From the IMG/VR virus record IMGVR_UViG_3300032225_000625, positions 1 to 29,845 of that record: 29,845 nucleotides of DNA. The stretch is one strand, 5' to 3'. Both the position numbers and the translations under genes were made by a program. Positions 1 through 22,479 of this stretch are shown here, piece after piece. Position 1 is the first letter of the stretch; every line of letters begins with the position of its first letter. A model generated the notes under the pieces. It saw only the letters and a program-made list of their open reading frames with translations. It searched no databases and was not told the DNA's origin. This DNA comes from a virus (taxonomy: Duplodnaviria; Caudoviricetes).

Positions 1-987
1 AAGGCTCTGATGGCCCGCAAGGCCGCTATGGGCGCTCCTGCGATGGCCGCCCCAGGTATGCCCGCCATGAAGAAGGGCGGCAAAGCTGATGACAAGGCCC
101 AGGACAAGGCCATGATCATGAAGGCCTTTAAAGAGCACGACGCGCAGGAGCACAAGGGCGGCAAGGGCACCAAGCTCAAGCTGGCCACGGGCGGCGTTGC
201 CAACGGCATGAAGACCGGCGGCAAAGTGCATAAGGTATCTGGACATCCAGAAGGCTCTCATGAGCACCACAAGCATATGGCGAAGCACTATGCCAAGATG
301 CATAAAGAAGGCGGTTCTGCCCATCACCACAAAATGCATGAGCACCACAAAGCTATGTGCAGTGGCGGAATTATGCACAAGGCTGCTGGCGGTTCGGCCC
401 TTGATAAAGACGAAACCAAGACGACCATCGAGGGTAACGCGAATAAATTCGTTAAGACCAAAATGATGAGTGGCAAAGCTGACCCAGGCTACGAAAAGTA
501 TGCCGCTGGCGGCACCGTGGAAGGCAATGAAGGCGCGTTTGAGAAGACCAAGATGGAGCGCAAGAAAACCAATCCTGGGTACGAGCGCTACGCGACTGGC
601 GGTGTCGTGAACGGCATGGCTACTGGCGGCTTGACCAACCCGATGAAAAAAGGCGGTGCCGCAAAAAAGCACTACGCCACGGGGGGCAGTGTTAGTACTG
701 GCCGCGCCGTGGCAATGCCAAAGCATTTTGTCTCGCAGCCCATAAGCAACAGCCGTCAGTCTGGCACCTTTAAGAAGGGCGGCTCAGTTGATTCCGATTT
801 GGTCGACGCTTCTAAAGGCGCCTACGACCGGTCTATCGGGCCGGGAGCCGACGAAATAGAGATGGCAAGAGCTTTCCGAGATCCAATTGGTAGCATGAAA
901 AAGTTGCTGGGGGTAAGCCCCGCGCCAACGGAAAAGCAGGTCGTCCACACCGGTGGGTACAAAAAAGGCGGCAACGCCAAGTGCTGA
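1..987 (+). CDS. Basic Lys/Gly/His-rich phage protein with repeated (M/Y/F/L)-(K/A)-x-G-G motifs; possibly 5'-partial
   Basis: The frame is open from base 1 (K-A-L-M...), with the first ATG at 10. It has about 15 GG-ending motifs (MKKGG, YATGG, FKKGG...), a His-rich tract and an internal duplication (TIEGN..KTKM..PGYE.YA.GG x2). A terminator follows. Confidence 0.8.
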   Translation, partial: KALMARKAAMGAPAMAAPGMPAMKKGGKADDKAQDKAMIMKAFKEHDAQEHKGGKGTKLKLATGGVANGMKTGGKVHKVSGHPEGSHEHHKHMAKHYAKMHKEGGSAHHHKMHEHHKAMCSGGIMHKAAGGSALDKDETKTTIEGNANKFVKTKMMSGKADPGYEKYAAGGTVEGNEGAFEKTKMERKKTNPGYERYATGGVVNGMATGGLTNPMKKGGAAKKHYATGGSVSTGRAVAMPKHFVSQPISNSRQSGTFKKGGSVDSDLVDASKGAYDRSIGPGADEIEMARAFRDPIGSMKKLLGVSPAPTEKQVVHTGGYKKGGNAKC

Positions 988-6220: not shown

Positions 6221-7294
6221 ATGGCCTACTCCGGCACCATTGGTCAGACCGTAATCTCAGTACAGACGCTCATCGACCACGGTGCCCGGCGCTGTGGAAA
6301 GCTGGCCGAGGAGTTGACGGTGGAGCAGGTGCAGTCGGCCAAGGAGTCGTTGTTTTTCTTCCTGTCCAACTTGGCCAACCTTGGCATCAACTACTGGGCC
6401 ATCAACAAGACCGTTATTGGCCTCAATGCCAATCAGTACATTTACAGCCTGCCGGTGGGCGCCGTGGACGCGCAGAACGTGCTCTACAGGCGAATGAACA
6501 GGCCGGTGGGTAGTTACACATCATCCGCAGGCGGAACGGCCCAGAACGCCGCTGACAGCGACTTGGCGACATACTGCCAGCAGACGTCCCCCAACGGCAA
6601 CATCGCCGTGGTGTACGGCACCAACAACCCTCAGTACATCGGCTCGGTGGGCTTCATGCCCTACATCGCCGGTGGCGGCAGTGGGACATGGAGCTACGTG
6701 CTGGAATACTCTACCGACGGATCCACTTGGAACAACCTGGCTACCGGCACCAGCGTCGCCGTGGCGGATATGCAGTGGGTATGGACGGACATTGACCCTG
6801 GCCAGAACGTCCAGTACTACCGAATGCGCGCCACCGGCGGCACCACGCTGGCCCTGCGCGAGCTGTACTTTGGCAACAACAGCACCGAGATCACGATGGC
6901 GCGGCTGAACCGCGACGACTACACCAACCTGCCCAACAAGAACTTTACGGCCAACCAGCCCTTCCAGTTCTGGTTTAACCGCACGATCCCGCAGCCCACG
7001 ATGCAATTGTGGCCAGTGCCATCAGATCCGTTCGTCCAGATGACGGTGTGGTACTCCCGCCAGATCATGGACGTGGGCGCGTTGAACGGCCAACTGGAGA
7101 TACCCCAGCGCTGGTACGAGGCCGTGCTGATGAATTTGTCGCACCGAATGAGCCTTGAGCTGCCTGGTGTGCAGATGGACCGCATCGGTTACCTCGAGAA
7201 AATGGCCGCGCAGTACCTGAATGACGCCGAGAGTGAAGAGCGAGACAAATCGCCGATTTACCTCGCCCCTAACATTTCAATTTACACCCGGTAA
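6221..7294 (+). CDS. Putative head-tail adaptor/tail tubular-like protein with an inserted discoidin (F5/8 type C)-like domain
   Basis: AAGGA SD; helical N- and C-terminal regions (LANLGINYW; LWPVP; IPQRWYEA) flank a beta-sandwich segment with NAAD..LATY, LEYSTDGSTW, QYYRMR and LRELYF. Confidence 0.6.
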   Translation: MAYSGTIGQTVISVQTLIDHGARRCGKLAEELTVEQVQSAKESLFFFLSNLANLGINYWAINKTVIGLNANQYIYSLPVGAVDAQNVLYRRMNRPVGSYTSSAGGTAQNAADSDLATYCQQTSPNGNIAVVYGTNNPQYIGSVGFMPYIAGGGSGTWSYVLEYSTDGSTWNNLATGTSVAVADMQWVWTDIDPGQNVQYYRMRATGGTTLALRELYFGNNSTEITMARLNRDDYTNLPNKNFTANQPFQFWFNRTIPQPTMQLWPVPSDPFVQMTVWYSRQIMDVGALNGQLEIPQRWYEAVLMNLSHRMSLELPGVQMDRIGYLEKMAAQYLNDAESEERDKSPIYLAPNISIYTR

Positions 7295-12465: not shown

Positions 12466-12897
12466 ATGACTAAATGTAGCATGCCAAATTGTCCTCACGA
12501 AGCTATTGCCAAAGGTTTTTGCAATGCTCATTACATTAGACAGCGGCGCGGAAAAAATATGGACATTCCGGTGCAACAGTACAACAAAGAAAAAATTTGC
12601 ATAGAATGTGGAAAACCTACAAATGGTAAAGGTGGTTTTTTAAAATGCCAAAAGCATTATACCTTACATAAGCGTAAAGAGTTAAAGGACAGATTGATTA
12701 AGCAATTGGGTGGAAAATGTGCAATGTGTCAAGGAATTTTTCCTCCGTCTGTTTTTGATTTTCATCACTTGCAAAATAAAGTAGAAGACATTTCATCCAT
12801 GTTTTTAAACCGAACAGAATCCGCAATAGTTAAAGAACTGGAAAATTGCATTTTGTTATGTGCTAATTGCCATCGAATACACCATCATGAAAAATAA
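12466..12897 (+). CDS. Free-standing HNH endonuclease with N-terminal Zn-finger-like repeats
   Basis: CxxC...FDFHH...CILLCANCHRIHH HNH core; two C..C..C..HY units; visibly AT-rich relative to its flanks. Confidence 0.85.
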   Translation: MTKCSMPNCPHEAIAKGFCNAHYIRQRRGKNMDIPVQQYNKEKICIECGKPTNGKGGFLKCQKHYTLHKRKELKDRLIKQLGGKCAMCQGIFPPSVFDFHHLQNKVEDISSMFLNRTESAIVKELENCILLCANCHRIHHHEK

Positions 12898-13396
12898 TTT
12901 TGACGCTGCGCTGGCCCACGTACTTGCCTCGGAAGGGGGTTTTAGTAACCATAAACTTGACCCCGGCGGTATGACCAACCTCGGCTGCACCAAGGCGGTC
13001 TGGGAGGAGTACGTTGGCCACCCAGTGTCGGAGGCCGATATGCGCGCCCTGACACCCGCTTTGGTGGCGCCACTGTACAAGCGCAAGTATTGGGACAAAG
13101 TGGCGGGTGATTCGCTTCCTTCTGGTTTGGACTACGCGGTATTCGACGCAGCCATCAACAGCGGTCCTGGGCGTGCGGCCAAGTGGCTGCAGGAATTGGT
13201 GGGTGTTACCGCCGACGGGGCGATCGGCCCCGGCACCCTGGCCGCAGTGGGCAAGATTCCTGCCCAAAACCTGATCGCGCAGTACAATGACAAGCGCCTA
13301 CAGTTCCTTGAAAGCCTCCCAACTTGGGGGGATTTTGGCAAGGGATGGGGTAACCGAGTGGCGCATGTGCAGTCCGCCGCTTCACAATTAGCATGA
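12887..13396 (+). CDS. Endolysin, glycoside hydrolase family 108 (ZliS-like) with peptidoglycan-binding region (169 aa)
   Basis: EGGF.NH..DPGGMTNLG, YWD, FDAAINSG, LQ..VGV.ADG.IGP.T and FGKGW.NR; ATG at 12887 preferred. Confidence 0.9.
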   Translation: MKNNFDAALAHVLASEGGFSNHKLDPGGMTNLGCTKAVWEEYVGHPVSEADMRALTPALVAPLYKRKYWDKVAGDSLPSGLDYAVFDAAINSGPGRAAKWLQELVGVTADGAIGPGTLAAVGKIPAQNLIAQYNDKRLQFLESLPTWGDFGKGWGNRVAHVQSAASQLA

Positions 13397-13404
13397 GGCC
13401 GTTT

Positions 13405-13626
13405 ATGGATACCCAGTCGATCATTAACTCCGCACTTGGCCTTATCGCATTTTTGGGCGGGTGGGTGTTGAACAACATCACTCGAACCATGGACCGCCTT
13501 GACTTAGAAACGCGCGGCATGCAACGCGACTACGTCACCAAGAACGATTACCACCGAGACATCGACGAGATCAAGGCCATCTGCAAGCAGATTTTTGACA
13601 AACTTGATGCCAAGGCCGACAAATGA
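13405..13626 (+). CDS. Small single-TM protein (73 aa)
   Basis: GAGG SD upstream of ATG 13405 (alternative start 13393); N-terminal hydrophobic helix followed by a coiled coil. Confidence 0.7.
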   Translation: MDTQSIINSALGLIAFLGGWVLNNITRTMDRLDLETRGMQRDYVTKNDYHRDIDEIKAICKQIFDKLDAKADK

Positions 13627-14264
13627 CTACACCTGCCGCCGTCCAAACTTACGACAACCTTACTTCTACGGTGCTTCAATACCTGGAGCGTAGTGACGCG
13701 GCGGTGGTCAATTTCATCCCCACGGCCATCATGCTGGCCGAGTACGAGATCGCGCAGGACATAAAGACCTTGGGCCAGATGCTGGTGGCTGATGGCGCCA
13801 TGACGATCAACAACCCCGTGATCGCCAAGCCCGCGCGCTGGCGCAAGACGGTGTCAATGACCCTGACCACCACGGCGGGCCAGAAGCAGCCGATCTACCT
13901 GCGCAAGTTGGAGTACCTGAACAACTACGCCCCCGACGTCACCGCAACGGGCACGCCGCTCTACTACGCCGACTACGACGCCGATCACTGGTTTGTGGCA
14001 CCCACGCCTAGCGCCAACTTTGCGTTTGAGACGCTGGTGTACACCCGACTGCAGCCGCTGGCCTCCGACAACCAGACCAACTGGCTGACCCAGAACGCCC
14101 CCAACGCCATGCTGTACGGCACGCTGAAGCAGACTGCACCGTTCCTGAAGGACGACGCCCGTCTGCAGGTGTGGAATGGCCTGTTCGACGCCGCTATGGC
14201 CGCGCTGAAGGCCGAGGATCAGCTTCGTATTGGTGACCGCCAAGCCATCGCACAGGACTCTTAA
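13623..14264 (+). CDS. Putative head-tail adaptor protein (213 aa)
   Basis: TY..L...V..YLER, I.LAE, G.P.YYA, VAPTP, TNWLT.NAP..LYG.L and PFLK.D.R pattern of podovirus adaptor-like proteins; ATGA overlap. Confidence 0.6.
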   Translation: MTTPAAVQTYDNLTSTVLQYLERSDAAVVNFIPTAIMLAEYEIAQDIKTLGQMLVADGAMTINNPVIAKPARWRKTVSMTLTTTAGQKQPIYLRKLEYLNNYAPDVTATGTPLYYADYDADHWFVAPTPSANFAFETLVYTRLQPLASDNQTNWLTQNAPNAMLYGTLKQTAPFLKDDARLQVWNGLFDAAMAALKAEDQLRIGDRQAIAQDS

Positions 14265-14266
14265 CT

Positions 14267-15490
14267 ATGCCCTCATACACCAACCCCTTCTCCGGCCAGA
14301 CCATCAACCCCGCCTCGGTGAGCTATGAGGCGTTGTCGATCAGCGTCAACACCGAGTTGCAGTGGCCGGTAAACGGCAACACCAACACGCCGGTGAGCAG
14401 CATCATTGATGTGACGGCCACCACGACTGGGTTGCTGCTGAAGATGCCGCCCGCGCAGCAGGTGTCGACCGGCCAATCCGCGTTGATCCGCAACGTGGGA
14501 ACCAACACCTTCACGGTGACCGACAACTCGGGCAACACCATCGTGGCTGTGACCTCGGGCGTCTCGCAGTTCATCTTTGTGACCGACAACACCACGGTCA
14601 ATGGGGTGTGGTCATCGGTGGTGTTCGGTGCGGGCACGTCGTCGGCGAACGCCGCCGCGCTGGCGGGGTATGGCCTTGCGGCGTCGGGGTTAACCCTGAA
14701 CCAGGTGTACCCCGTCTTCTCGTACGGCTCAAGCACCACCCTCACGGCGGCCAACAGCGCTGACCTGAGCGTGTGGACAGGCGGCGTCGGGACACTGACG
14801 CTACCTTCTGCCGTTACCGTGGGCACGGGCTGGTTCATCACCATCAAGAACAATGGCACGGGGATACTCACGCTTACCCCGGCAGGTGCTGAGACGATCG
14901 ACGGGAACGCCAGCCAGCAGCTCCAGTTAGCCGAGTCAATTAGCCTTGTGTCTAACGGCACGAACTGGAGCAGCTTCGGTATCGGGCGGTCCAATACCTT
15001 CGCCTACACCCAGCTCGCATTGTCGGTGACCGGCGGCACGCGCACGCTGTCCTCCGTGGAGGCGGCTAACACGATCCAAGTGTACTCGGGGGCGCTTACC
15101 AGCAACGAGATCATAGTGGTGCCGTCTACCGTGCAGCTCTACACGTTCACCAACAACACCACGGGCAGCTCGTACTCGTTTACCGTGAAGACTGCCGCCA
15201 GTGGCGGCGCGGTAGTGACAATACAGCAAGGAACCTCGCTGGTGCTCATTTGTGATGGAACGAATGTCTACAACGCGGCGTCGGGTTCTACGAGCAACAT
15301 CGGGTCTTTGACGGTGGGCGACGGCTCGTTAGCCACGCCGTCGATCAAATTCAATTCGGATCCCAACACAGGTATCTACTTGAGCACTGTGCCAGGTGCA
15401 TTAGGCTTTGTGGTCGCAAATGCTTTGGCGGGGTACTTCAATTCCACGGGGCTTACTGTCACCAACGGTATCAGCGGGGGCACGTTCTAA
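14267..15490 (+). CDS. Virion tail protein (407 aa)
   Basis: Thr/Ser-rich beta protein with repeated L.LP.A..V.TG...I(K/R)N.G modules; lies between the adaptor and hub genes. Confidence 0.65.
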   Translation: MPSYTNPFSGQTINPASVSYEALSISVNTELQWPVNGNTNTPVSSIIDVTATTTGLLLKMPPAQQVSTGQSALIRNVGTNTFTVTDNSGNTIVAVTSGVSQFIFVTDNTTVNGVWSSVVFGAGTSSANAAALAGYGLAASGLTLNQVYPVFSYGSSTTLTAANSADLSVWTGGVGTLTLPSAVTVGTGWFITIKNNGTGILTLTPAGAETIDGNASQQLQLAESISLVSNGTNWSSFGIGRSNTFAYTQLALSVTGGTRTLSSVEAANTIQVYSGALTSNEIIVVPSTVQLYTFTNNTTGSSYSFTVKTAASGGAVVTIQQGTSLVLICDGTNVYNAASGSTSNIGSLTVGDGSLATPSIKFNSDPNTGIYLSTVPGALGFVVANALAGYFNSTGLTVTNGISGGTF

Positions 15491-18400
15491 TGACCCAAAA
15501 AGTCATAGCCATGGAGATCCCTCCGGGGATACAGCGGGACGGAACCCAGTTTGATGCCCCCTGCTACACCGACGGCAGGTGGGTACGGTTCCAGCGCACG
15601 CGGCCTCGCAAGATTGGTGGCTATGACGCGGTATTCTTGAACGCCTCGGGTATCTCCCGTGGCATGGCCATGAGCACCGTCAACGGCTTTAATTACGTGG
15701 TATCGGGCTACAGCGGTGGCTTGCAACAGTGGATCACCAGCCCAGTGGGCGGCGTTGGCTCGGGCCCGTACACGTACACCCTGAGCAACTTCACCTCAAG
15801 CGTCTACAACCTGTGGCAGTTTGACATTGCCTACGATTCCACCGGCAACAACACAAACAACCTGGTGGCGCACCCTGGGCAGAACTTGTCCTTCATGACG
15901 TCTTCTACGGCAACGCCCGTGCTGTACGGCACGTTTCCAACTAATGCCGATGGCACCCGCACGATGTCAAAGGTGGGCGTGTTCACGGCAAACGCCAACA
16001 CCACGAATGGCAGCGCCGCAGTCACGCTGACAGCGGCAAACGTGCGCGTGGGCGCGGGGCAAGCGGTGACTGGTACGGGCATCCCCGCTTCCACCACGGT
16101 GTCATCAGTGGTGGGCAACACCATCACGCTGTCCAACGCGGCCACGGCCTCCACTACCGCGCCCTTGTCAGGCGTGACCTTGACCGGTACGGCGGGGCAG
16201 TTCTCCAACACGGCCACCACAGGCCTTGCCATCGGGCAGTTAATCAACATCAGCGGATCAACCACGGCTACAGCCTTGAGCGGCCTGTACGCCACCAACG
16301 CTTCGGGCCGCTTTAACTACAGCGGAACCGCGCTCTCGGTGGGAACTCCCATCACAATAAGCGGCTCCGCGACCAACACCGCCTTGAGCAGTTCCTACGC
16401 CATAAGCACCGCGGGGGGATTCTCTTGCGCGGCGTCGGCCACCCCGCTCAGTGTCGGGCAGCAGGTAATTGTCAGCGGAACCGCTACCGACACCGTGCTT
16501 GGCACGGTTTATTGTACAAACACCACCGCCAACTTCACCTGCACCAGCGCCACGCCTTTGGTAATCGGCCAGATAGTCACGGTAAGCGGCGCGACCACGG
16601 CAACCAGTCTGACCAACGTCTACACCACGGGGCTGGCCGGGACTTTCTCCTGCACCAGCACCGGTACCCTTGCGGTCGGGCAAACAGTAACGGTGAGCGG
16701 TACGGCTGCGGCTACCGCATTGAGCAATGTGTACTCCACTGGGGCGGCGGGCACATTTGTTTGCAGTAACTCAAGCACCACCCTGCAAGTCGGGCAGACC
16801 GTCACCATAAGTGGGTCAACCAGCACCACAGCGCTGTCCAGCGTGGTGATCACGGGTACGGCGGGTACCTTTCAGTGCGCAGCCTCACCGGTTACTTTGT
16901 ACGTTGGGCAGCCTGTTGTCATCAGCGGCACGTTTGGCGGCACGGGAAGCATCACAGGGTACTCCTCACCAACAACGTATTACATCATCACAACCAACGG
17001 CACCACCACGTTCACGCTGTCAACCAGCTTGGGTGGAGCTGCGGTCACCACGGTGGCCGGTACGCCAACGGGCGTGACATACACCCTGAGCGCTGCGACC
17101 ATCAGCGGGTACTCTACCCCTACGACGTACTACATCATCGCCACGAACGGGGTGAACACCCTGACGCTGTCAACCACCTCAGGCGGCGCGGCGGTGACGA
17201 GCACGGTGGGCGCCACCACGGGCTGGACCGTCAATGCCAATGCCTTGGCCATAACTGGGTACTCTACCCCGACCACCTACTACATAACCGCTACCAACGG
17301 CTCCTCCACGTTCACGCTGTCCACCACATCGGGCGGCGCTGCGGTGACCACTACCATCGGTGCAGGCACGGGGCTGACGTTAAACGCCAACGCGCTATCA
17401 ATAACGGGGTACTCTACCCCCACCAATTACTTTGTGATCGCCACCAACGGCTCGTCCACGTTCCAGCTATCTACCTCCGCAGGCGGTGCCGCTGTGACGA
17501 CGACCGCTGGGCCGAGCACTGGCCTGACCTTCACGGCCAAGGCCTCAAACATTGCGGCTGCCACGTACTACATCATCGCTACCAACGGCGGCACCACGTT
17601 CACGTTGTCCACAACGCCCACGGGCAGCGGCGTCACCACCACCATTGGGCCGACTACCGGCCTGTCGGTGACCGCGCAGGCCACGGTCATTACGGGCTAC
17701 ACCAGCCCCAAGGTGTACTACGTGATAGCCACGGACAGCGCCTCGTACTTCCAACTGTCCGCCACCAGCGGGGGCGCGGCCATCACAAGCACAGTCGGGC
17801 CGGTGACAGGCTTGTCGTTCTCCATAAACACCCCTTCCGCCCTGAGCGGGGTGGCAATAACGGGCACCGCCGGGCAGTTTTCTTGCAGCGCGTCGCCTGC
17901 GCTACTTCAGGTCGGCCAGCCGGTAGTCATCAGCGGCGCCTTTGGTGGGACGGGATCCATAACGGGGTACTTGAACCCCACTACGTATTACATCATCACC
18001 ACCAACGGCACGACCACGTTTACTCTATCGGCCACGCTGGGCGGCTCGGCCATCACCACCACGGCGGGGACACCCACGGGCCTGTCCTACACCCTATCGG
18101 GCGCGGTAATAACGGGGTACCCTGGGACATCAAGCTACTACATCATTGCCACCGACGGCACGTCCACGTTCCAGATCTCTGCTACATCGGGCGGCACGCC
18201 GCTGGTGACGGCCATAGGCACCACGACCAGCCTGACGTTCACCGTGTCCAATCCGGTCGCGTTGACCTTTGACAACAACATCTCAGTGTCCGGCGGGTGC
18301 GTGATACTGCACCCGTACCTGTTCGTGTACGGCGACAACGGGCTGATCCAGAACTCCAGCGCGGGCGACTTCTCAAACTGGGTGTCCGCCGACGCCAACT

Positions 18401-19557
18401 CCAACAACGTGTCCACAGGCAAGATCGTCAAGGGTCTACCCATCCGAGGCGGCTCCACGTCGCCGTCTGGCCTGTTCTGGGCTGTCGACGCCCTTATCCG
18501 TGTGTCGTTCCAGCCGTCATCCGCTGGCGGCCAGAACTTCTACTGGACATACGACTTGGTGAGCAGCCAGACCTCAATCATGTCGTCAAGCTGCGTGATT
18601 GAGTACGACGGCATCTTCTACTGGATCGGCGTGGACCGGTTCCTGTCCTACAACGGCGCGGTCCAAGAGATACCCAACGAGCTGAACCAGAACTATTTCT
18701 TTGACAACGTGAACATCGCCCAACGCCAGAAGGTATGGGCCAGCAAGGTGAGCCGGTACGGTGAGATATGGTGGTTCTACCCCAAGGGCACCGCCACGGA
18801 ATGCACCGACGCCATCATCTACAACGTGCGCAACAAGTCGTGGTACGACGCCGGTGAGGCGCCAGGGGCGCGCCGATCTGCGGGAGTGTTTTCCGAGGTG
18901 TTCCCCAAACCCTTCTGGGCGGGCAATGAGTCTTTCGGTATCACCTTCAGCCAAGGGTTCGCCACGGTAAACACCACCACGACTTTGACCCTGAACGCGG
19001 CGGATAACCGTATCATCATCGGGATGGCCATAACTGGGCAGTACATCCCCGTCAACACGACCGTGACCAACGTGGTGGGGGTTACCGTCACGATGTCCAA
19101 CGCCGCCACCAGCAGCGGCACGATAACGGTCACGTTTACCGGGCAAAACTACAAGCTGTGGCAGCATGAGACGGGCTACGATTCTATTGACCTGACCAAC
19201 GTCACTGCCATCCAGAGCTACTTCGAAACCAACAGCGTGGGCACTTTGGGTGGGCTGGTGGGCACCCAGCAGCAGCCTGGGGATAACTTGTGGACAAGAT
19301 TGGAGCGCGTGGAGCCCGACTTCGTGCAGACGGGCACAATGACGGTGACGGTCACCGGTCAGGGCTACGCCGACGACACCGTGGTGGACTCCGACCCCTA
19401 TCCGTTTGACCCGACTACGCTTAAAATCGACATGCGAGAACAGCGCCGTGAGATGCGGCTGCGGTTTGAATCCAACGTGGCGGGTGGGACGTACCAAACG
19501 GGCCGTGTGCTGCTGTCAATGACCACCGGCGACTCCAGAAGCACGGGCAACCCATGA
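15490..19557 (+). CDS. Tail hub/nozzle (P22 gp10 stabilisation-like) protein with a large nested-repeat insertion (1355 aa)
   Basis: N-terminal PGI.RDGT..WVRF..PRKIGG; propeller-like C-terminal part (FYWIG.DRF..YNG.V, EIWWFYP, IIYN, LWQHETG, R.EPDF); about 700 aa of Thr-rich repeats inserted. Confidence 0.7.
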   Translation: MTQKVIAMEIPPGIQRDGTQFDAPCYTDGRWVRFQRTRPRKIGGYDAVFLNASGISRGMAMSTVNGFNYVVSGYSGGLQQWITSPVGGVGSGPYTYTLSNFTSSVYNLWQFDIAYDSTGNNTNNLVAHPGQNLSFMTSSTATPVLYGTFPTNADGTRTMSKVGVFTANANTTNGSAAVTLTAANVRVGAGQAVTGTGIPASTTVSSVVGNTITLSNAATASTTAPLSGVTLTGTAGQFSNTATTGLAIGQLINISGSTTATALSGLYATNASGRFNYSGTALSVGTPITISGSATNTALSSSYAISTAGGFSCAASATPLSVGQQVIVSGTATDTVLGTVYCTNTTANFTCTSATPLVIGQIVTVSGATTATSLTNVYTTGLAGTFSCTSTGTLAVGQTVTVSGTAAATALSNVYSTGAAGTFVCSNSSTTLQVGQTVTISGSTSTTALSSVVITGTAGTFQCAASPVTLYVGQPVVISGTFGGTGSITGYSSPTTYYIITTNGTTTFTLSTSLGGAAVTTVAGTPTGVTYTLSAATISGYSTPTTYYIIATNGVNTLTLSTTSGGAAVTSTVGATTGWTVNANALAITGYSTPTTYYITATNGSSTFTLSTTSGGAAVTTTIGAGTGLTLNANALSITGYSTPTNYFVIATNGSSTFQLSTSAGGAAVTTTAGPSTGLTFTAKASNIAAATYYIIATNGGTTFTLSTTPTGSGVTTTIGPTTGLSVTAQATVITGYTSPKVYYVIATDSASYFQLSATSGGAAITSTVGPVTGLSFSINTPSALSGVAITGTAGQFSCSASPALLQVGQPVVISGAFGGTGSITGYLNPTTYYIITTNGTTTFTLSATLGGSAITTTAGTPTGLSYTLSGAVITGYPGTSSYYIIATDGTSTFQISATSGGTPLVTAIGTTTSLTFTVSNPVALTFDNNISVSGGCVILHPYLFVYGDNGLIQNSSAGDFSNWVSADANSNNVSTGKIVKGLPIRGGSTSPSGLFWAVDALIRVSFQPSSAGGQNFYWTYDLVSSQTSIMSSSCVIEYDGIFYWIGVDRFLSYNGAVQEIPNELNQNYFFDNVNIAQRQKVWASKVSRYGEIWWFYPKGTATECTDAIIYNVRNKSWYDAGEAPGARRSAGVFSEVFPKPFWAGNESFGITFSQGFATVNTTTTLTLNAADNRIIIGMAITGQYIPVNTTVTNVVGVTVTMSNAATSSGTITVTFTGQNYKLWQHETGYDSIDLTNVTAIQSYFETNSVGTLGGLVGTQQQPGDNLWTRLERVEPDFVQTGTMTVTVTGQGYADDTVVDSDPYPFDPTTLKIDMREQRREMRLRFESNVAGGTYQTGRVLLSMTTGDSRSTGNP
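16159..18255 (+). repeat. Array of 8 A-type (about 37 aa) and 8 B-type (about 50 aa) protein repeats
   Basis: A units start at about 16159, 16270, 16378, 16492, 16603, 16714, 16828 and 17836. B units start at about 16951, 17101, 17251, 17401, 17551, 17689, 17959 and 18109. Confidence 0.9.
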
Positions 19558-19781
19558 TTGCACAGGTCTACGATCCCCGGAACATGGAGTGGGGCTACTG
19601 GTGCGCCCTCATGTCCGAGCTGTTTGCGGCCAACCAACTCGGCACTGTGCCCGAAGGCCAGTGGCGAACTTGGGCGGATGCGTTATCGGGCATTGGCCGC
19701 TTCCCTGGCGTGCCGGACAGCCGTGGCTTTGCGACATGGCAGGACTGGGCTTTTGCACTGAATAACGCACTGAGGAAATAA
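19554..19781 (+). CDS. Trp-rich hypothetical protein (75 aa)
   Basis: ATGA overlap with the hub gene; fills the gap to the next gene exactly. Confidence 0.7.
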   Translation: MIAQVYDPRNMEWGYWCALMSELFAANQLGTVPEGQWRTWADALSGIGRFPGVPDSRGFATWQDWAFALNNALRK

Positions 19782-19783
19782 TT

Positions 19784-21490
19784 ATGCCGATAGACAGAAA
19801 CGGTAATGAAATAATAACCGCCGATACCCCCGGCGCGGTATTTGATGAAAGTAATTCACGGCGCGGCGGGTATTGGCGCATGCCAACTGCGGCAGAGCAA
19901 GCAGATATTTCTTTAAACGCCCAGATTGCGGGACTTCCTCAAAATATTCGAGACGCAATGAATTTGGGGCAATTGATACCACAGTATTCAACGGTATCAA
20001 CGGGTGCAGGCCGTGGAGGGCAAGTTAGCGTTAATAACGGCATTACCGGCTTTATTTCTCCCGGAGCTAACGACACCACTATTTCCTACGACCTTTTCGG
20101 GAATAAAACCGGCCAAACTCAAAATCAACATGGCGGCGGCGGGTTTCTTGGCGACCTTATCAGCAGCGTCGGTAGCGGAGTAAGTGACTTTCTTTCGGAC
20201 CCAGCAAAAGCAACCACCAATTTATTTGAGAACCCCGGCGTTAAAGAAGCGGCGCTGATTGCGGCTACCATATACGCACCTGAGCTTCTAGGTAATCTTG
20301 GGACGGAGGCAGCGGTAACCGGCGCGGGTGCTGATGTCGCTGCGGATACTTTGGGATCGGGAATCGTAGAAGGCGGCGGCCTTGATGCCCTTGCCACCGG
20401 CGCGGGCACCACTGCTACGCCAGCATTTCTACCGGAAGCGGCGCAAGCGGCCTCCACAACGGCGACATTGCCTACCGCCGCTACGGGGGCGCTGCCTGTT
20501 ACCGAAGCGTTAACCGAGTTTGGCGGTTACCCATCTTTGGATGCATCCGAGATGGCGGCGTATCCCACCTCTGGGATAGTTGGCCCTATTCCTGCCGCCG
20601 CTAGTGGTCTGACCGCCGCTGAACTGGCCGCTTCTGAGATGGCGGCGTACCCTACTTCTGGGATAGTGGGGCCCGTGCCAGAAACAGCTCTGACTGGGAT
20701 CGCTCCACTTGGAGTACCTAGCGCCGCAGAGTTAACTAGCGGATTGAATTTTGCCGACCTTACCAAGGGCGCGTCCACTATCAATAGCTTGCTCAATTCG
20801 TTCAAACAAGGCGCTACGCTCGGCTCCCTTGACGGGTCAAGCAGCTCGGGCAGTTCCAACGGATCGCGCTTGGGTTCGGACTTGGCTAGGGTCGGGCAGA
20901 TGGGCTCAGGAAACTCGCTGTTGCACGCCGTGCAGGGGCTCTACAGCGGCTCTCCCACGGGCTTTGCTGAAGGCGGCTCCACGAGTTCTGGCTTGGACAA
21001 CTACAACCCCCTGAAGGGGGACACCGTGAAGGTTGGTGATGTGGGCAAGAACATCACGCTGTCCAAGGATTTGGCCTCACTGTACGGGGACAACGTCCTT
21101 GCACACGGGGGCCAGCCGCATGTGGACCCCAGGCTCATGGCGCTGATACGGGCACGGGCAAATCCTGCGGACAAGCAGCACCCCAACTACGACGGCACTC
21201 CGGTGTTCCGCACGGGCGGGCTTGAGGGCCTGGGCGGCAAGTACGTTGAGGGTAAGGGCGACGGCACCAGCGACGACATCACGGCAATGCTCGCTAACGG
21301 GGAATACGTCTTCAGTGCAGACGTGGTGTCGGCCTTGGGCAACGGATCCAACAAAGCGGGTGCCGAGAAGCTCAACGACATGGTGCATTCCATACGTGCC
21401 CGCGCGCGGTCCGCGCCGCCTGACAAGTTGCCCCCAGACGCCAAGTCGCCGTTAGAATACCTCAAACCCTCCAAGGGGAAACAAGCATGA
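19784..21490 (+). CDS. Putative internal virion/ejection protein (568 aa)
   Basis: GAGGA SD; low-complexity Ala/Gly/Thr; C-terminal G.GDGTSDDI.AMLANGEYV motif; FAEGG, LAHGG and FRTGG motifs. Confidence 0.6.
   Translation: MPIDRNGNEIITADTPGAVFDESNSRRGGYWRMPTAAEQADISLNAQIAGLPQNIRDAMNLGQLIPQYSTVSTGAGRGGQVSVNNGITGFISPGANDTTISYDLFGNKTGQTQNQHGGGGFLGDLISSVGSGVSDFLSDPAKATTNLFENPGVKEAALIAATIYAPELLGNLGTEAAVTGAGADVAADTLGSGIVEGGGLDALATGAGTTATPAFLPEAAQAASTTATLPTAATGALPVTEALTEFGGYPSLDASEMAAYPTSGIVGPIPAAASGLTAAELAASEMAAYPTSGIVGPVPETALTGIAPLGVPSAAELTSGLNFADLTKGASTINSLLNSFKQGATLGSLDGSSSSGSSNGSRLGSDLARVGQMGSGNSLLHAVQGLYSGSPTGFAEGGSTSSGLDNYNPLKGDTVKVGDVGKNITLSKDLASLYGDNVLAHGGQPHVDPRLMALIRARANPADKQHPNYDGTPVFRTGGLEGLGGKYVEGKGDGTSDDITAMLANGEYVFSADVVSALGNGSNKAGAEKLNDMVHSIRARARSAPPDKLPPDAKSPLEYLKPSKGKQA
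20543..20674 (+). repeat. Imperfect 45-bp direct repeat, period 87 bp
   Basis: ASEMAAYPTSGIVGP is encoded twice (about 20543 and 20630) with only synonymous differences. Confidence 0.85.
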
Positions 21491-22479
21491 CCGATTTCAC
21501 CCAATCGTCGCAAGTATCGTCGTCCACGCCCACGGGCGGGCTGGGGAACGCCTACCTGACGAACACCGCCGGTGCGTTGAACACCAACACCGCTGCGTCG
21601 AACAACATCGTGGACCCGACGACGGGCCAGCTCACCGCTGCTGCTAGGACGGCATATGACCCCAACGCCTTGCAGACACAGGCCTTCACCAACGTGGCGG
21701 CCAACCAAGGCAATTACATCCCCGGCCTTACGGCGGCGGGCCAGACCATTGCGAATGCCGGTCAGACCGATATCACCGGCGCGGCCAACCCGTACCTGAC
21801 AGCGGGCACCAGCAGCGCTGCCGATCTGGTGGGCGGGTACATGAACCCCTACGTCCAGAACGTGGTGGACCAGATCCGGCTCGCCAACCAGCAGAACATC
21901 CAACAGAACCTAACACCAGGTCTTACTGCCGGTGCGGTGGGCGGCGGGCAGTTTGGCTCGCAGCGGGGTGCCAATGCCTTGGCCATGGGCATCTCCAACG
22001 CCAACATCGGGGCGCTGGGCCAACAGTCGCAGGCGTTGCAGTCCGGTTACAGCGAGGCCCTGAAGGCCGCCATGCAACAGCGCGCCAACCAGGTGGGCGC
22101 TGGAAAGACAGCCGAAGAAGCCGCCACTGCTCAAGGCGCTTTGGGTCTTAACACCGGCGCGGCTCAAGCAAAGATCGCGCAACAGCTACAGTCACAAGGG
22201 CTGGCGGACACTGACGCGCTGCTGAAGGCTGGGAACGCGCAGCAGACCATCGCAACCAACCGCCTGAACGCACCTCTAGACATCCTGGGCAAGACCCTGT
22301 CGAACACCTCAGGCGTGGTGCTGCCGACGGCAAGCACCACTGAGCTGAATATGTCACCGCTGTCCCAGATCAGCGGTCTGGCTGCGCTTGGCGCGGGGGC
22401 TATTACGAAGGATAAGGCGACTGGAAAGTCTCCTTTGGACGACTTCTTGGAAGCGTACAAGAAACAGTTTGGAGGGTAA
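21487..22479 (+). CDS. Putative DNA ejection/pilot protein (330 aa)
   Basis: YMNPY..NVVD and GQFGSQR motifs; Gln/Ala/Gly-rich helical; position typical of podovirus ejection genes. Confidence 0.6.
   Translation: MTDFTQSSQVSSSTPTGGLGNAYLTNTAGALNTNTAASNNIVDPTTGQLTAAARTAYDPNALQTQAFTNVAANQGNYIPGLTAAGQTIANAGQTDITGAANPYLTAGTSSAADLVGGYMNPYVQNVVDQIRLANQQNIQQNLTPGLTAGAVGGGQFGSQRGANALAMGISNANIGALGQQSQALQSGYSEALKAAMQQRANQVGAGKTAEEAATAQGALGLNTGAAQAKIAQQLQSQGLADTDALLKAGNAQQTIATNRLNAPLDILGKTLSNTSGVVLPTASTTELNMSPLSQISGLAALGAGAITKDKATGKSPLDDFLEAYKKQFGG

Follow-up and report, generated by a model that had tools for sequence, protein, structure and literature searches.

We analysed a window of 29,845 bases, a virus record from IMG/VR with an estimated completeness of 44%, in which one open reading frame (ORF; P0001, 15490..19557, + strand, 1355 aa) encodes a probable podovirus nozzle (tail hub) protein carrying a long repetitive insert. 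The insert is composed of two kinds of unit; in each small six-stranded beta-barrel, strands one to three would come from a 37-aa A unit and strands four to six from a 50-aa B unit. We propose that the insert (aa 223-925) is a recursively self-inserted array of such barrels, forming a seven-level stalk whose basal barrel also holds a side barrel, and we assign this reading a probability of about 80%. A nested, domain-in-domain arrangement had been put forward in an original prediction made from the sequence alone, and structure prediction and comparison with homologues now support it. The barrel fold, the pairings from A7-B1 to A2-B6 and a separate A8B7 barrel are predicted, with A1-B8 the weakest pairing.

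Two types of half-unit in balanced order

Regular expressions located eight A anchors ([VI]G[QT]x[VI]x[VI]SG; aa 248, 284, 322, 359, 396, 434, 472 and 808) and eight B anchors (Y[YF][VI][IT]xT[ND][GS]; aa 497, 547, 597, 647, 693, 743, 833 and 883) in P0001. Hidden Markov models (HMMs) iterated over homologues recovered all eight A units at independent E-values (i-E) <= 4e-13 and all eight B units at i-E <= 1e-17, and no further full-length unit of either type in this protein. Both methods bear out the count and order given in the original prediction, A7 B6 A B B, that is, A1-A7, B1-B6, A8, B7 and B8 over aa 224-922 (nt 16159-18255; Table 1). The observation that A directly precedes B at only two places, which share an FGGTGS turn, was also correct; both junctions read ISG(T/A)FGGTGSITGY, with the unit boundary between FGG and TGS, while the linkers between consecutive A units are 1-3 residues long. 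The two AB units at these junctions (16828-17100 and 17836-18108) had been described as near copies. They are the closest pair, identical at 70/91 aa (77%) and 184/273 nt (67%), which falls short of that description. Likewise, B units generally start with ITGY as stated, with the exception of B5. The possibility that A and B are diverged copies of one unit was rejected (hhalign probability 0.4%).

Because 1 in 9 random orders of eight A and eight B units is balanced in the sense of matched brackets, the single 8:8 string is weak evidence, and the weight comes from homologues. Under nested pairing, the similarity matrix of the A units of P0001 correlated with that of its B units (r 0.51, ranking 877th among 40320 permutations); parallel pairing gave no such correlation (r -0.29).

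Predicted structure of the array

Two AlphaFold2 models were built, covering the whole insert (model 1, aa 161-940, 23-row alignment) and the inner levels A5-B3 (model 2, aa 373-636, 58-row alignment, register checked). Topology was read from the first and last aligned residues of VIA-align matches, 50 of which were listed per model, and from one contact list. Model 2 was predicted with a predicted local distance difference test score (pLDDT) of 95.6 and a predicted template modelling score (pTM) of 0.86, and all five models scored at least 94.5. DSSP assigned three strands to each A and three to each B. All 50 listed matches of model 2 are small six-stranded barrels (Z 4.6-6.8), from reductases (FAD barrels), from phage tail tubes, tail tips and tailspikes, or of the EF-Tu domain-2-like kind. 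Sorted by aligned range, they form three classes with ~62-78 aligned residues each, at ~73..162 (A7B1; 33 of the 50), 35-40..212-216 (A6..B2; nine, with ~70 residues aligned over a 177-residue span) and 1..263/264 (A5..B3; seven, with 62-74 aligned), the remaining row being odd. In every class the range ends fall on unit boundaries, which is what nested, discontinuous barrels predict. The similarity of AB units to domain 2 of EF-Tu, SelB, eRF3, Hbs1 and aEF1a recurred at three levels, with Z 4.6-6.1, below the trust level of the tool.

Model 1 was less confident (pLDDT 61.5, pTM 0.37; A1 and B8 below 50). Its listed matches repeat the classes of model 2, at 246-247..423-425 (A6..B2) and 211..474-478 (A5..B3), and add 170-173..524-526 (A4..B4, three listed rows) and 622..711 (A8B7, one listed row). 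Domains assembled from N- and C-terminal segments that flank an inserted copy were thus predicted for A6..B2, A5..B3 and A4..B4 (~70 aligned residues, ranges of 177-357 residues). A further 15 listed rows correspond to residues 1..75 of the model (aa 161-235), a contiguous barrel preceding the array (best match 8eci_2, Z 8.0, root-mean-square deviation (rmsd) 2.5, 72 aligned).

The outer levels were addressed in a split-chain prediction, in which A1-A4 and B4-B5-B6-A8-B7-B8 were given to ESMFold2 as two chains with a custom alignment (residues below are numbered as in the alignment, after the chain number). The interaction score ipSAE was 0.74 (0.71-0.78 in three runs), against 0.00 for the best of three controls. 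Of solved complexes, 116 of 157 reach the mark used for this score, as do 2 of 215 mismatched pairs; with the custom alignment, these counts serve here as a rough guide only. The runs agreed in at least 95% of contacts, with a partner pLDDT of at least 88. Among the 25 lowest-error contacts, 24 join A4-B4 (1:177, 189, 203-205 with 2:498, 521-523), A3-B5 (1:151, 162-168 with 2:533-535, 544, 567-569) or A2-B6 (1:128-130 with 2:581-583; 1:115 with 2:594), and one at the B4/B5 boundary touches A4. The confident interface includes A1 (residues 64-66 and 68-103) and B8 (residues 714-762). B7 takes no part in the interface with A1-A4 and A8 gives just three residues, as expected for a self-contained side barrel. 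We know of no complex like this pair, so that a memorised pass seems unlikely. The model supports A-B binding as a prediction.

The anti-diagonal pattern of A-B contacts anticipated for a nested array was therefore recovered in the predictions at every level: as aligned ranges for A7B1, A6..B2, A5..B3 and A4..B4, and as contacts for A4-B4, A3-B5 and A2-B6; A1 and B8 were both in the interface, with no top-ranking contact between them. It had also been anticipated that an AB piece would fold and that arrays of A or B alone would not. The predictions agree with this, with pLDDT 95.6 for model 2, 32 for the A piece alone, 53-56 for the B piece alone and 88-91 for the two pieces together.

Balance of A and B units among homologues

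A word-indexed search with aa 224-930 returned 573 proteins at E <= 0.001; the analysis took the best 120 together with P0001. Iterated HMMs gave equal, bracket-balanced strings in 97 of these 121 proteins. The set contains 38 distinct strings, 24 of them balanced, including AB, ABAB, AABB-type, AABABB, AABAABBB, ABAAABBB, A5B5, A7B6ABB and AABA6B6ABB. A HMMER scan of 1.84 billion representatives yielded 378 clusters (50% identity) at E <= 1e-3; among the best 150 of the 378, 142 were new, and 129 of these are balanced. A single AB unit is by far the commonest form in the new representatives. A sample blind to the insert was obtained by retrieving 80 viral loci with the hub C-terminus alone: 61 have no units, 14 have one AB and five have 5:5, 7:7 or 8:8, so that all 19 unit-bearing loci are balanced. 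No clean A-only or B-only array was seen in the 263 proteins and 80 loci. The expectation that homologues keep equal numbers of A and B in balanced order is upheld by these counts, and the two numbers do not vary independently.

Two features of the homologues extend beyond this balance. In P0049 and P0035 (aa 213-327), an A unit is split by a foreign insert of 80-110 aa, hence the HMM counted one A twice; here a domain of another type lies within an A half-unit, a case of heterologous nesting inside a half-domain. Four proteins (P0067, P0071, P0075 and P0094) contain a nested AAAABBBB array, and one of them, P0067 (1438 aa), also has a Phage_sheath_1C domain (PF17482, E 2.1e-14). Nozzle and contractile-sheath proteins therefore share the module.

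Indels and the boundaries of the insert

One relative (locus L003) encodes a 654-aa nozzle with flanks identical at 146/150 and 421/430 positions (97-98%), from which exactly aa 223-925 are absent. The array therefore behaves as a self-contained cassette whose ends meet, as an out-and-back fold requires. Relatives with 7:7 units lack one 36-aa stretch of the A array and one 50-aa stretch of the B array, each in the middle of its array, and MAFFT put these gaps at A4/A5 and B3/B4, positions that pair in the bracket order. In a 9:9 relative, a single insertion of 88 aa, as long as one complete AB unit, follows A1. The number of barrels across relatives is 0, 1, 5, 7, 8 or 9.

The hub has a second optional cassette, at window positions 18931-19149 (aa 1148-1220), which resembles the small barrel of aa 161-222 and has the motif ...IGMAITGQYIPVNTTVTNVVGVTVTMSNAAT... 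Two relatives (L007 and L023) lack it, their alignments skipping aa 1148/1151-1205/1208.

Proposed architecture and alternative explanations

In the proposed architecture, one arm per nozzle subunit would grow from a single surface loop; solved podovirus nozzles have six subunits. The chain would run outward through A1-A7, reverse at the FGGTGS hairpin and return through B1-B6, the intact A8B7 and B8, so that the barrels would be closed from the tip back to the base. Folding would have to begin at the tip, the A halves being on hold until their B halves arrive. An insert in a hub loop has to bring its two ends together, so that a chain running out and back would be the way to build a rod from one loop, and the differing number of barrels among relatives would tune the length of the arm. 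The arm would likely serve to reach or bind the host surface, as judged from where it sits, from the modular way in which it is gained and lost and from the occurrence of its fold in tail tips.

Several observations weigh against the nested reading. The structural evidence is wholly predicted, with topology taken from the ends of aligned ranges and one contact list, and the whole-insert model is weak. A3-B5, A2-B6 and A1-B8 are absent from the 50 listed matches of that model, and no A1-B8 pair is among the 25 best split-chain contacts, making it the least well shown pairing. Fold matches of the models are middling, with Z below 8 except for the flanking barrel, and Foldseek against the PDB gave nothing at E <= 1e-3 for either model. 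Covariation is weak: mutual information with average product correction between bracket partners totalled 248 for the nested pairing, compared with 212-228 for shifted, parallel and random pairings, which is not clearly above the shifted controls; the top pairs are dominated by lineage, and A13/B26 is no better than its control. At the thresholds used, 24 of 121 proteins and 13 of 142 representatives are unbalanced. Nine of each were inspected, and the exceptions among them were mostly split, partial or diverged units. The former showed a split A, a partial hit of 12 residues (P0116), a fragment truncated at its N-terminus (P0069) or unassigned gaps as long as a unit; the latter showed an excess B preceded by A-sized unassigned gaps, or partial units. 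These findings do not account for every case in either set. Homologues moreover share ancestry, so that balanced counts are not independent events. Finally, the level missing from the 7:7 relatives is ambiguous, in that unit identities leave B5 without a best match.

Part of this evidence could be accommodated if the A and B arrays were two independent repeat structures, such as solenoids or fibres, whose numbers are equal through shared duplication history or chance and whose pairing is falsely forced by the predictors. The weak covariation and the low-confidence whole-insert model would fit this explanation, as would a plain tandem DNA repeat spanning B2-B4 (17107-17505, period 150 nt, 2.7 copies, 73% matches), detected by Tandem Repeats Finder (TRF); TRF reported no comparable DNA repeat over the partner units A4-A6. 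We consider it highly improbable, however, in view of the absence of clean A-only and B-only arrays from the 263 proteins and 80 loci, the fall in pLDDT to 32 (A1-A4) and 53-56 (B) when the partner is removed, the same register obtained from two predictors (AlphaFold2 and ESMFold2) and the predominance of single AB units among the new representatives. A domain swap, in which the A array of one nozzle subunit is completed by the B array of its neighbour, would tie the ring together and leave no single-chain arms. It would equally need matching numbers of A and B, and the pairing does work in trans in the ESMFold2 prediction; but the contiguity of A7B1 and A8B7 means that the chain turns back on itself, branched strings (AABABB or AABA6B6ABB, for example) can be read as brackets within one chain, other host proteins, a tail sheath among them, carry the same arrays, and the single-chain model 2 is confident. 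These points make the swap very unlikely, and we favour single-chain nesting.

A different question is whether the arm does anything at the host surface. The array might instead simply adorn the nozzle, as a passive and dispensable part that stabilises or shields it and has no role in host contact. This alternative concerns function alone and is compatible with the nested fold. It is consistent with the relative whose 97-98% identical hub lacks the array, with the 61 of 80 hub relatives without units, and with the finding of no binding motif or enzyme family in Pfam and PDB sequence searches. On the other side, rapid gain, loss and length change are the usual pattern of phage adsorption parts, which the behaviour of the array between near-identical hubs fits, and the same barrel class occurs in tail tips, tail tubes and tailspikes. 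We therefore regard passive decoration as possible but somewhat doubtful.

The nozzle gene and its neighbours

The label of tail hub given to P0001 in the original prediction was right in the sense of a podovirus nozzle. Residues 1-1332 match the profile phrog_3287 (positions 1-507/524, E 6.2e-17), a sequence match to a nozzle family; because the match runs end to end, a protein of roughly 520 aa has been enlarged in P0001 by about 800 residues. The C-terminal 426 aa match the nozzle gp16 of Vibrio phage VP1 weakly (8zkm_E, E 4e-4; 8zkk_O, E 7e-4), the match covering query aa 84-190 of this part. Upstream lie an SU10-type adaptor (13623-14264, + strand, PF24175, E 1.9e-21) and a fibre-like ORF (14267-15490, + strand), and the order adaptor-fibre-nozzle is that of Caulobacter phage GB2A. 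Caulobacter phages such as GB2A are also the closest annotated relatives of P0001. By profile and gene order, the host protein of the array is probably a podovirus nozzle, which would form the ring below the adaptor.

P0001 has no Pfam family at E <= 0.01. Phage_stabilise (PF11134) is precomputed for four of its homologues, and a scan of P0083 and P0106 gave none at E <= 0.001. No megablast match to phage genomes was found for window positions 13000-20000, and the best match in BFVD, with 50% identity, is a 1409-aa protein that comes from an uncultured phage and is itself uncharacterised.

Table 1 Features of the nozzle gene and its insert. Partner assignments are predicted.
Feature	Position in window	Strand	Residues and basis
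Hub N-terminal part	15490..15969	+	aa 1-160; 146/150 identical to insert-free L003
Contiguous small barrel before array (C-type)	15970..16155	+	aa 161-222; retained in L003
A1, first half of outermost barrel, predicted partner B8	16159..16269	+	aa 224-260; HMM i-E 1.5e-14
A2, predicted partner B6	16270..16380	+	aa 261-297; split-chain contacts
A3, predicted partner B5	16381..16494	+	aa 298-335; split-chain contacts
A4, predicted partner B4	16495..16605	+	aa 336-372; split-chain contacts, whole-insert model ranges
A5, predicted partner B3	16606..16716	+	aa 373-409; ranges in both models
A6, predicted partner B2	16717..16830	+	aa 410-447; ranges in both models
A7, predicted stalk tip, ends in FGGTGS turn, partner B1	16831..16947	+	aa 448-486; junction ISGTFGG/TGSITGY
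B1, predicted to close tip barrel with A7	16948..17097	+	aa 487-536; models, HMM
B2, predicted to close A6	17098..17247	+	aa 537-586; models
B3, predicted to close A5	17248..17397	+	aa 587-636; models
B4, predicted to close A4	17398..17535	+	aa 637-682; whole-insert model, split-chain contacts
B5 (no ITGY start), predicted to close A3	17536..17685	+	aa 683-732; split-chain contacts
B6, predicted to close A2	17686..17838	+	aa 733-783; split-chain contacts
A8+B7, predicted contiguous side-branch barrel inside outermost barrel	17839..18105	+	aa 784-872; junction ISGAFGG/TGSITGY
B8, predicted to close outermost barrel with A1	18106..18255	+	aa 873-922; split-chain interface
Hub C-terminal part	18265..19554	+	aa 926-1355; 421/430 identical to insert-free L003

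Elsewhere in the window, an ORF for an HNH endonuclease (several PHROGs, best E 2.2e-18) lies in the structural module and overlaps the start of the endolysin gene (12466-12897 and 12860-13396), which encodes Glyco_hydro_108 plus PG_binding_3. At 6221-7294, a 357-aa protein combines an F5/8 type C (discoidin) domain (E 1.4e-6) with a weak match of the SU10-adaptor type (E 9.8e-4); its gene would therefore be a second adaptor-like one, upstream of the fibre genes. ARAGORN called a 95-nt tRNA-Thr (CGT) at 21561-21655 (- strand), within an ORF of the + strand (21487-22479); both the length of the call and where it lies point to a false positive.

Implications and comparison with known systems

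If the predicted fold is true, the relatives form a natural series of 0, 1, 5, 7, 8 and 9 barrels on nearly the same hub, which could be used to study the folding of deeply nested domains, the matching in number of distant repeat arrays and the way in which phages vary the reach of an appendage. The module is widespread (378 clusters at 50% identity) and also present in other virion proteins such as tail sheath, with no Pfam relative (E <= 0.01) and no PDB sequence relative by phmmer (E <= 1). For annotation, strings of the form A...A B...B should be taken as a warning of split domains, not as two repeat families. More broadly, the chances seem to us evenly balanced that phage tail appendages are generally built by self-nesting of one small barrel, a rule not described until now. 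Such a rule would give arms of programmable length from a single loop, with levels gained or lost as matched pairs of halves or as whole AB units, and a tip-first, zipper-like folding in which more than 250 A residues wait; seven levels here and eight in relatives would be deeper than the six quoted for the insertion Si3 of RNA polymerase, considered below.

Besides L003, GB2A gp067c (510 aa) is an insert-free nozzle orthologue, with 45% identity over 36% of the query and the same gene order, from which the array is wholly absent. The best matches of the AB barrel, at all nested levels, are phage tail barrels (FCWL1 9jlf_E, Mystique tail tube 9n71_B, lambda gpJ 8iyk_J, Chi tail tip 8vjh_D and phi92 endosialidase 4hiz_A) and EF-Tu domain-2-like barrels (Z 4.6-6.8, rmsd 2.6-3.7 Å, 62-89 aligned residues). 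These Z-scores are in the range that the tool gives as common for unrelated small barrels, and those domains are contiguous single copies.

Hairpin-like topologies are known from periplasmic adaptors and the outer domains of flagellin, in which an out-and-back chain, with domains completed by the returning segment, forms a rod with both ends at its base. The adaptors EmrA (4tko_B) and ZneB (3lnn_B) are among the barrel matches with discontinuous chain ranges, and Foldseek ranks flagellin 9au6_A first for model 2 (E 1.1e-2). Unlike the array, these proteins nest different domain types, over three to four levels, with no insertion of self-copies, and phmmer against PDB sequences detected no relation between them and the insert.

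The original prediction knew of no deep, branched nested form in a phage tail hub. As a principle, recursive nesting including branching has already been solved in Si3 of cyanobacterial RNA polymerase; for phage tails, no description of nested or recursive domain insertion was found in the open-access literature searched. Si3 is described as eight sandwich-barrel hybrid motifs (SBHMs) in non-tandem arrangement, with SBHM-2 to -5 assembled from distant parts of the chain (PMC10895346), and its HABAS domains as recursively inserted into one another (PMC11515920); a 2026 survey of domain insertion quotes a six-level recursive architecture with bifurcating nodes (PMC13114784). On these accounts Si3, which lies in the trigger loop of beta' (RpoC2), is like the array in that copies of a small beta domain are self-inserted, the chain folds back into an elongated body and some nodes hold several inserts. 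Si3 chains (8emb) are the top four PDB rows in Foldseek for the whole-insert model, at non-significant values (E 5e-3, TM-score 0.05-0.10), and Si3 is absent among the 50 listed VIA-align rows of either model; by these models, a common fold of the phage barrel and Si3 (SBHM/HABAS, CATH 2.40.50.100) is not established. Because its host is a phage nozzle protein, with the insertion in a nozzle loop rather than in the trigger loop of RNA polymerase, the array is Si3-like in architecture and not a member of the Si3 family. It differs further in that its halves are regular enough to be written as strings of A and B, in that depth ranges from 0 to at least 8 among relatives, and in its predicted seven levels of nesting, compared with the six quoted for Si3.

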